Below, piece by piece: positions 2,807 through 3,069 of a DNA stretch of 5,642 bases (position 1 is the stretch's first letter; each line of letters starts with the position of its first letter). A program made the translations under genes and the position numbers. The stretch is from the IMG/VR virus record IMGVR_UViG_2698536471_000011; one strand, given 5' to 3'. The notes under the pieces were generated by a model. The model saw nothing but the letters and a program-made list of their open reading frames with translations, did no database searches and was not told where the DNA came from. Source of the stretch: a virus. Lineage: Duplodnaviria > Heunggongvirae > Uroviricota > Caudoviricetes.

Positions 2807-3065
2807 TTACTTCATCCCGCCAATATTTTCCCACGTCCCGTCAGCACGCAGGATTTGCAGCGGTCTTACCACACACTGTATCTGCTTTTTATCCGCATCC
2901 AGTATCACCACCTGCGTGATTACCCTGTCCTGCTCCGGAATAATACCATTCTCATCGGACTCCAGAATGTCTGCCGGTCCCAGACGCAGTTGTGCTGTAA
3001 GTAACTCCCCGTGTTCACGGTCATCATGCTTTCCGTACCGGGTTTCACTTTCCAGCGGAAGGTTT

Positions 3066-3069
<4 letters not shown>
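2807..3069 (-). pseudogene. M: Minor tail protein M start (11 codons) joined to an unidentified coding fragment
   Basis: ATG at 3069-3067 overlaps the upstream TGA (3068-3066) as ATGA and translates MKTFRWKVKPG, matching the lambda gpM N-terminus as I recall it. It then diverges completely (TESMMTVNTG...) and stops at 2920. A different minus frame (supplied ORF 2807..3097) has protein-like composition (...IIPEQDRVITQVVILDADKKQIQCVVRPLQILRADGTWENIGGMK) and is probably the C-terminus of an unrelated gene. Confidence 0.45.

Follow-up and report, generated by a model that had tools for sequence, protein, structure and literature searches.

The start of minor tail gene M joined to the 3' end of a small tail-fibre gene in a degraded lambda-like prophage of Escherichia coli

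Introduction

The late genes of intact EHEC/Stx lambdoid prophages end, just before the effector cargo, with a small gene of 89 codons, here called tfC, for which PGAP uses the name "phage tail fiber C-terminal domain-containing protein". The native order J-lom-fibre(437 aa)-tfC(89 aa)-effector cargo is found in O121 RM8352, an Stx2d phage, 2013C-3264, VT2-Sakai and phage cdtI, and tfC follows the 437-aa side tail fibre gene, with its ATG 1 nt past the fibre stop. This fibre is the collagen-like EPclA (Ghosh et al. 2012, PMC3368898), composed of PfN, coiled-coil, collagen and PfC domains, and experiments have shown that its PfC acts as a trimerisation module, re-nucleating the collagen helix (PMC3368898). 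The product of tfC is a second, stand-alone PfC, 34% identical to the fibre's own PfC over 62 residues, and on this similarity its domain is a paralogue of the EPclA PfC. The native gene (for instance at 2626-2895 in L004, with the fibre gene at 2897-4210, and at 4001-4270 in L018) is conserved in long-tailed as well as 933W-like short-tailed Stx phages. We found no functional study of the 89-aa PfC gene, and an AlphaFold2 monomer of its protein, based on an alignment of just 12 sequences at 67-94% identity, reached a pLDDT of 51.6 and a pTM of 0.34, values too low for the model to be relied on. Native copies display a pN/pS of ~0.1-0.2 at a pS of 0.11-0.23 (small counts), and this low ratio indicates a genuine protein-coding gene under purifying selection. 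Like lambda tfa, tfC is small, sits directly downstream of a side tail fibre gene and closes the late operon; unlike tfa, with which it shares no sequence similarity, it matches PF06820 and not Caudo_TAP (PF02413). A chaperone role for tfC would be conjecture.

Two further kinds of system are relevant to prophages that have lost such genes. Remnants at the argU site (DLP12-type), between tRNA-Arg/fimZ and ompT, carry an rrrD-type lysozyme and a holin and have undergone multiple internal deletions. In EHEC, deletions have also been connected to IS629 and to IEE, a microhomology end-joining polymerase that promotes IS629 excision and is associated with deletions of a few nt to >40 kb (PMC9943667); the iee gene of Sakai is ECs_1305. 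Here we analyse a 5,642-nt stretch of DNA (hereafter "the window"), in which the start of the minor tail gene M is followed by a protein-like fragment in another frame. The locus shares its site, lysis genes and history of internal deletions with the DLP12-type remnants but differs from them in keeping an EspK-like effector and a lambda-type A'-W-B'::'H-M' block, and it shares insertion sequences at or near junctions with the IS629/IEE deletions, except that no IS is left at the joint under study. Our analysis indicates with high confidence that this joint is an ordinary scar of prophage decay, which left a stump of tfC beside the start of M.

Results

The window is a degraded lambda-like E. 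coli prophage at the DLP12 site

The window is a degraded lambda-like E. coli prophage located between tRNA-Arg/fimZ and ompT, i.e. at the DLP12 site (argU). Positions 308-5642 are 100% identical to a contig of GCA_911104175.1 (L016), and the window shares 99.98% identity with the 2013C-4974 chromosome (CP027587), bar an IS3-family element found in CP027587 at window position 4332. At position 3785 the window has a T where CP027587 and AP042682 have a C, and this single-nucleotide difference shows that the window represents a third strain of the same lineage.

On the minus strand, a P21-type holin gene (5189-4929), a lysozyme gene (4929-4432) and the start of Rz (4447 to ~4333) are followed by what remains of terminase gene A, its last 210 nt (4332-4123), then by a complete W (4126-3920) and by 53 codons from the start of portal gene B (3923-3764), inside which position 3785 falls. 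The B codons run in frame into the last 232 codons, or 3' end, of tape-measure gene H (3763-3066; PF09718, E=3.5e-22). Window 3764-4332 corresponds to lambda 2995-2427 at 97% identity and window 3032-3763 to lambda 13137-12406 at 95% identity, the H piece itself (3066-3763) matching lambda 12406-13103, also at 95%. The B'::'H joint is a second deletion besides Rz'|'A, and it yields a 285-aa ORF (3066-3923, minus strand). Other genomes annotate DNA matching the B piece as portal; PGAP labels it "phage tail tape measure protein, missing C-terminus", yet lambda 2836-2995, which is portal sequence, matches it at 97% identity.

On the plus strand, the window carries a gene for an EspK-like leucine-rich-repeat type III effector (991-2352), a retained cargo gene adjoining the fragment under study, followed downstream by a conserved 91-aa ORF (2415-2690). 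The EspK-like protein is intact at 453 aa and shares 85% amino acid identity with the annotated EspK of O121 RM8352, the divergence being mostly in residues 300-350; PGAP names it "hypothetical protein" in this lineage. Farther left lie the C-terminal piece of a tail fibre assembly protein (465-611, minus strand; Caudo_TAP, E=7e-21) and, adjoining it, the 3' end of a class I SAM-dependent methyltransferase gene (111-410, plus strand), which are more debris of the prophage right arm. In full genomes, an ISEc8 is found ~0.7 kb past the left end of the window. An Rfam search of the window returned no family.

Eleven codons of M remain, followed by a foreign frame

The minus strand at 3069-3037 reads ATGAAAACCTTCCGCTGGAAAGTGAAACCCGGT, encoding MKTFRWKVKPG, which is identical to codons 1-11 of M in lambda and in an intact relative. 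We assign this stump to M because its DNA matches lambda 13100-13137 at 37 of 38 nt and because it is syntenic with H. Its start signals are preserved, with a Shine-Dalgarno sequence GGAGG at 3081-3077 and an ATG overlapping the H stop (ATGA). Past codon 11, the M frame continues as TESMMTVNTGSYLQHNCVWDRQTFWSPMRMVLFRSRTG (ACG GAA AGC...) and stops at 2920, leaving a 49-aa ORF (2920-3069, minus strand) made of the M start and 38 out-of-frame codons across tfC. An earlier note on this DNA, made from the sequence alone, had described 11 M-like codons after which the native frame decays, and was correct on both counts as well as in its coordinates. The 49-aa ORF has no match in NCBIfam or Pfam, so that with only 11 codons left of a protein of ~109 aa it falls outside the M family PF05939 (Phage_min_tail); in PHROGs it has one weak match, which covers only the M-derived residues 1-13 (phrog_15552, unknown function, E=4e-4).

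A natural variant of M, or an error of assembly, could in principle produce the same reading. Both were tested and rejected, and we give them a negligible probability: M of lambda and its relatives continues as MDV... and not as TES..., and the identical junction occurs in three complete genomes (CP027587, AP042682 and CP027597) and in many independent drafts.

The second frame is the 3' end of tfC

A second minus-strand frame encodes YGKHDDREHGELLTAQ...RADGTWENIGGMK (YGKHDDREHGELLTAQLRLGPADILESDENGIIPEQDRVITQVVILDADKKQIQCVVRPLQILRADGTWENIGGMK); it comprises 76 codons and a TAA stop ending at 2807, exactly the ~76 aa that the earlier note had seen in another minus frame. Within the 96-aa ORF that contains this frame, Pfam identified PF06820 (Phage_fiber_C) with 122.9 bits and E=6.8e-36, for a cut-off of 25 bits. 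Residues 35-96 cover all 64 profile positions (1-64 of 64), and the domain lies at the very C-terminus of the ORF, ending at its last residue (...IGGMK) before the stop. The "tail fiber protein" family phrog_576 was matched with E=2.6e-50 over profile positions 13-89 of 89. All 76 residues are those of the O121 RM8352 and Stx2d-phage proteins except for a Y in place of C at codon 14. Native copies of the gene in 296 phage records and in thousands of E. coli genomes are 97-99.7% identical to the fragment in DNA; the phage records are mostly Stx-converting, and lambda-like as well as 933W/VT2-Sakai-like. These profile scores and this DNA identity argue against a chance resemblance. From sequence comparison, we thus conclude that the fragment (2807-3039, minus strand) is the 3' end of tfC, starting with the last 2 nt of codon 13 and running through codons 14-89 to the stop, with the PF06820 domain complete.

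Homologues proved abundant, where the earlier note had allowed that none might be detectable. Its statement that the fragment could not be placed in lambda L, K, I or J was also borne out, and the failure is explained by lambda having no counterpart of window 2807-3031. NCBIfam provided no model match, and a PDB sequence search returned chance matches only (E ~0.5).

The fragment retains 85% of the 89-codon parent and the whole Pfam domain. It is a truncated remnant and not a full-length phrog_576-type gene, since codons 1-13, the gene's own ATG and the fibre gene have been deleted. Compared to the 89-aa genes of EHEC/Stx lambdoid and 933W-like phages (WP_001023407.1 of O121 RM8352; the gene under VT2-Sakai orf59, NP_050558.1), it is identical or nearly so over residues 14-89 and has the same PF06820 domain, downstream hairpins and position before effector cargo, but lacks the first 13 codons, start codon and upstream fibre gene, and the frame upstream of it is an accident of H and M. 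With the PfC of EPclA (e.g. ECs2717, PMC3368898) it shares the Pfam family; it differs in deriving from a separate downstream gene devoid of collagen, coiled-coil or PfN parts, and trimerisation has been shown for EPclA only. Between the convergent tfC fragment and 91-aa ORF lie two terminator-like hairpins on the minus strand, at 2773-2787 and ~2745-2768 (2745-2790; MFE -24.3 kcal/mol, z=-2.1). Scanning 2600-3200 for promoters returned none.

The cargo side and downstream hairpins of tfC are conserved, while its fibre side was removed by the deletion. This qualifies the earlier note, which suggested that a third deletion had captured the 3' end of a tail or cargo gene. The deletion and the origin in the end of a tail gene both stand, but the fragment is neither cargo nor captured: it remains in its native place by the EspK-like cargo, and it is the M start that was moved next to it. 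Colinearity with the native right-hand neighbours rules out both a capture from elsewhere and a cargo gene.

The joint lies in a 4-nt microhomology

The junction was read by aligning the window to three native copies and by directly reading both parental sequences. At the joint, lambda M reads ...GAAACCCGGTATGGATG, the native small gene of 2013C-3264 reads ...CTGTGCGGGTACGGAAAGC and the window reads ...GAAACCCGGTACGGAAAGC. Four nucleotides, GGTA (3036-3039, minus strand), are common to M (CCC GGT ATG) and tfC (GGG TAC GGA), and lie within an imperfect 8-nt match, GGTAYGGA (3039-3032), with one mismatch; M-side matches in other genomes likewise reach 3032 with one mismatch. After M codon 11, the sequence is that of tfC from the second base of codon 13, out of the M frame. 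Under a null model for random joints, P(k) = (k+1)(1/4)^k(3/4)^2, ~1.4% of joints should show at least 4 nt of microhomology, and the joint therefore looks microhomology-mediated.

This raises the question of how the ends were joined, which is distinct from the identity of the junction. An IS629 or other IS could have inserted between M and tfC and undergone IEE-promoted excision, with resection and microhomology end joining producing the junction. We hold this route to be possible, if rather doubtful. It fits the 4-nt microhomology with no IS left at the joint, as the enzyme uses microhomologies of 2-6 nt and is tied to IS-adjacent deletions of up to >40 kb, and CP027587 has four IS3-family copies no more than 19 kb from the locus. 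The neighbouring Rz'|'A joint, 1.3 kb away, is moreover known with and without an IS629-type element, the IS-less form lacking 4 nt. However, we found no genome with an IS between M and tfC in this prophage, the junction bears no IS scar, so that the argument is one of analogy, and a 4-nt microhomology would equally suit RecA-independent replication slippage.

The Rz'|'A joint (4332/4333) is itself informative about its own history. The right flank could be compared in two IS-bearing genomes, CP027587 and CP027597, and in both a 1310-bp IS629-type element sits exactly here, unaccompanied by a target duplication; the next 4 nt (CTGC) belong to native Rz and are absent from the window. An IS3-family element is present in AP042682 too, where right-flank homology stops. 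The IS-less form was seen in the window and in L007, L008, L012-L014 and L016, and in none of the 5426 complete genomes. Because CTGC is missing from the window, the IS-less form looks derived, through IS excision with loss of 4 nt, as with IEE.

The overlapping 96-aa ORF is open by accident

The fragment frame is open upstream to an ATG at 3097, inside H, which creates a 96-aa chimeric ORF (2807-3097, minus strand; WP_000259565.1 in PGAP) consisting of 20 fortuitous codons, i.e. the H 3' end and M start read in an alternative frame, and the tfC fragment. This upstream opening is an accident. By eye, no convincing ribosome-binding site precedes the ATG at 3097, and the GGAGG serves the M ATG, so that any translation should yield the 49-aa nonsense peptide instead.

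The ORF could be read otherwise, as an expressed and retained protein providing a domesticated stand-alone PfC trimer to the host or to the effector locus. A complete PF06820 domain, an open frame with an ATG, annotation of the protein by PGAP and a fragment free of disabling mutations would all be expected of such a gene. We nevertheless consider it very improbable: besides the misplaced ATG lacking a visible Shine-Dalgarno sequence of its own, the 13 native N-terminal residues and start are gone, the partner fibre gene is deleted, and tfC has given rise to many other accidental chimeras. The absence of decay is also explained by age. Relative to the nearest native copy, the fragment has 3 synonymous changes and 1 non-synonymous change, with no frameshift or stop; changes so few, none of them disabling, point to a recent event, as does the presence of the junction in only 2 of the 5426 complete genomes. 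The most likely reading is that the fragment does nothing and is an inert relic, as fibre, tail and native start are all missing.

The junction is rare and travels with B'::'H

Among 5426 complete RefSeq E. coli genomes, the M'::'tfC junction was detected in two, 2013C-4974 (human, USA) and OkiPb01713 (cattle, Japan), and it is further present in CP027597 and several draft assemblies; none of the phage records has it. The exact 96-aa protein occurs on 39 public contigs. B'::'H accompanies M'::'tfC at every locus that extends far enough, and is found in the same two complete genomes.

The closest relative on the left flank, 2013C-3264 (L005), is colinear with the window at 99.7% DNA identity over positions 1-3039, ending exactly at 3039. 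There, the two edges of the joint correspond to positions 22958 (M side) and 33263 (tfC side), and the gap of 10.3 kb between them includes a 2.45-kb ISEc8 and amounts to ~7.86 kb without it. The genes missing from the window lie in this gap: M beyond the joint, L, K, I, J, lom and the fibre gene. H of 2013C-3264 is only 89% identical to the window H, however, and from this mismatch between flanks (99.7% vs 89%) we conclude that the true ancestor was a different mosaic, so that the deletion size of ~7.9 kb (about 8 kb) is an estimate drawn from this comparison.

The same mismatch of flanks against one reference prophage would also be compatible with several steps, whether successive deletions or recombination between two resident lambdoid prophages, especially as strains contain many such prophages and the window matches up to 39 places in one genome. 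Yet no intermediate was found in the 5426 complete genomes, and the gene order on both sides fits one colinear late operon, which leads us to regard a multi-step origin as unlikely. The sole apparent intermediate, in which the 96-aa ORF seemingly follows an intact H-M-L (L011; JZMU01000075.1, GCA_002971335.1), was rejected as an N-stitched scaffold mixing two different prophages, with 10-N runs at 3722-3731, 4130-4139 and 5725-5734. Since junction carriers all have B'::'H wherever the flank is present, their distribution by itself fits one event as well as several.

tfC occurs in other chimeras

Public databases contain many other, independent tfC chimeras (P0044, P0062, P0092, P0095 and P0116), with N-termini from tape measure, CII, fibre collagen repeats, J (DUF1983), Lom and other sources. 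In P0092, it looks as if the fibre's own PfC had been swapped for the downstream PfC. In this set, which is biased in that the search query was the tfC gene itself, the number of chimeras suggests repeated prophage-reducing deletions ending at the border of the effector cargo, and that structural-gene deletions sparing this cargo often end in or near tfC.

Discussion

These observations would be best explained by an ancestral late operon at the argU/fimZ-ompT site (DLP12) with the order H-M-L-K-I-J-lom-EPclA-tfC, followed by terminators and the EspK-like cargo. A single illegitimate recombination would have joined M codon 11/12 to tfC codon 13/14 at GGTA and removed ~7.9 kb. The start signals of M would have been kept, with its frame now running out of frame into tfC to give a 49-aa nonsense peptide, while the tfC frame would have stayed intact for 76 codons, its accidental upstream opening producing the 96-aa ORF. 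The fragment's lack of decay would then reflect how recently the deletion took place.

M'::'tfC completes a mosaic in which a lambdoid prophage was cut by three internal deletions (Rz'|'A, B'::'H and M'::'tfC), and what this reduced prophage has kept are its lysis genes and the EspK-like effector. For genome annotation, public genomes already contain this scar under a wrong annotation: WP_000259565.1 is a chimera created by deletion and no genuine variant of the gene. The junction in turn provides a clean marker of a small E. coli lineage.

More broadly, the parent of the fragment is an 89-aa PfC gene that is ubiquitous in EHEC/Stx phages and under purifying selection. Its tfa-like position and its PfC homology suggest that it is probably a fibre-tip or assembly factor, a role that we put forward as conjecture. 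It is a more remote possibility that the stand-alone PfC gene, conserved behind every collagen-like side fibre, acts in trans as a trimerisation or assembly factor, in the manner of Tfa. If so, the 3' part of tfC beside the effector cargo would be a recurrent end-point of prophage-reducing deletions.
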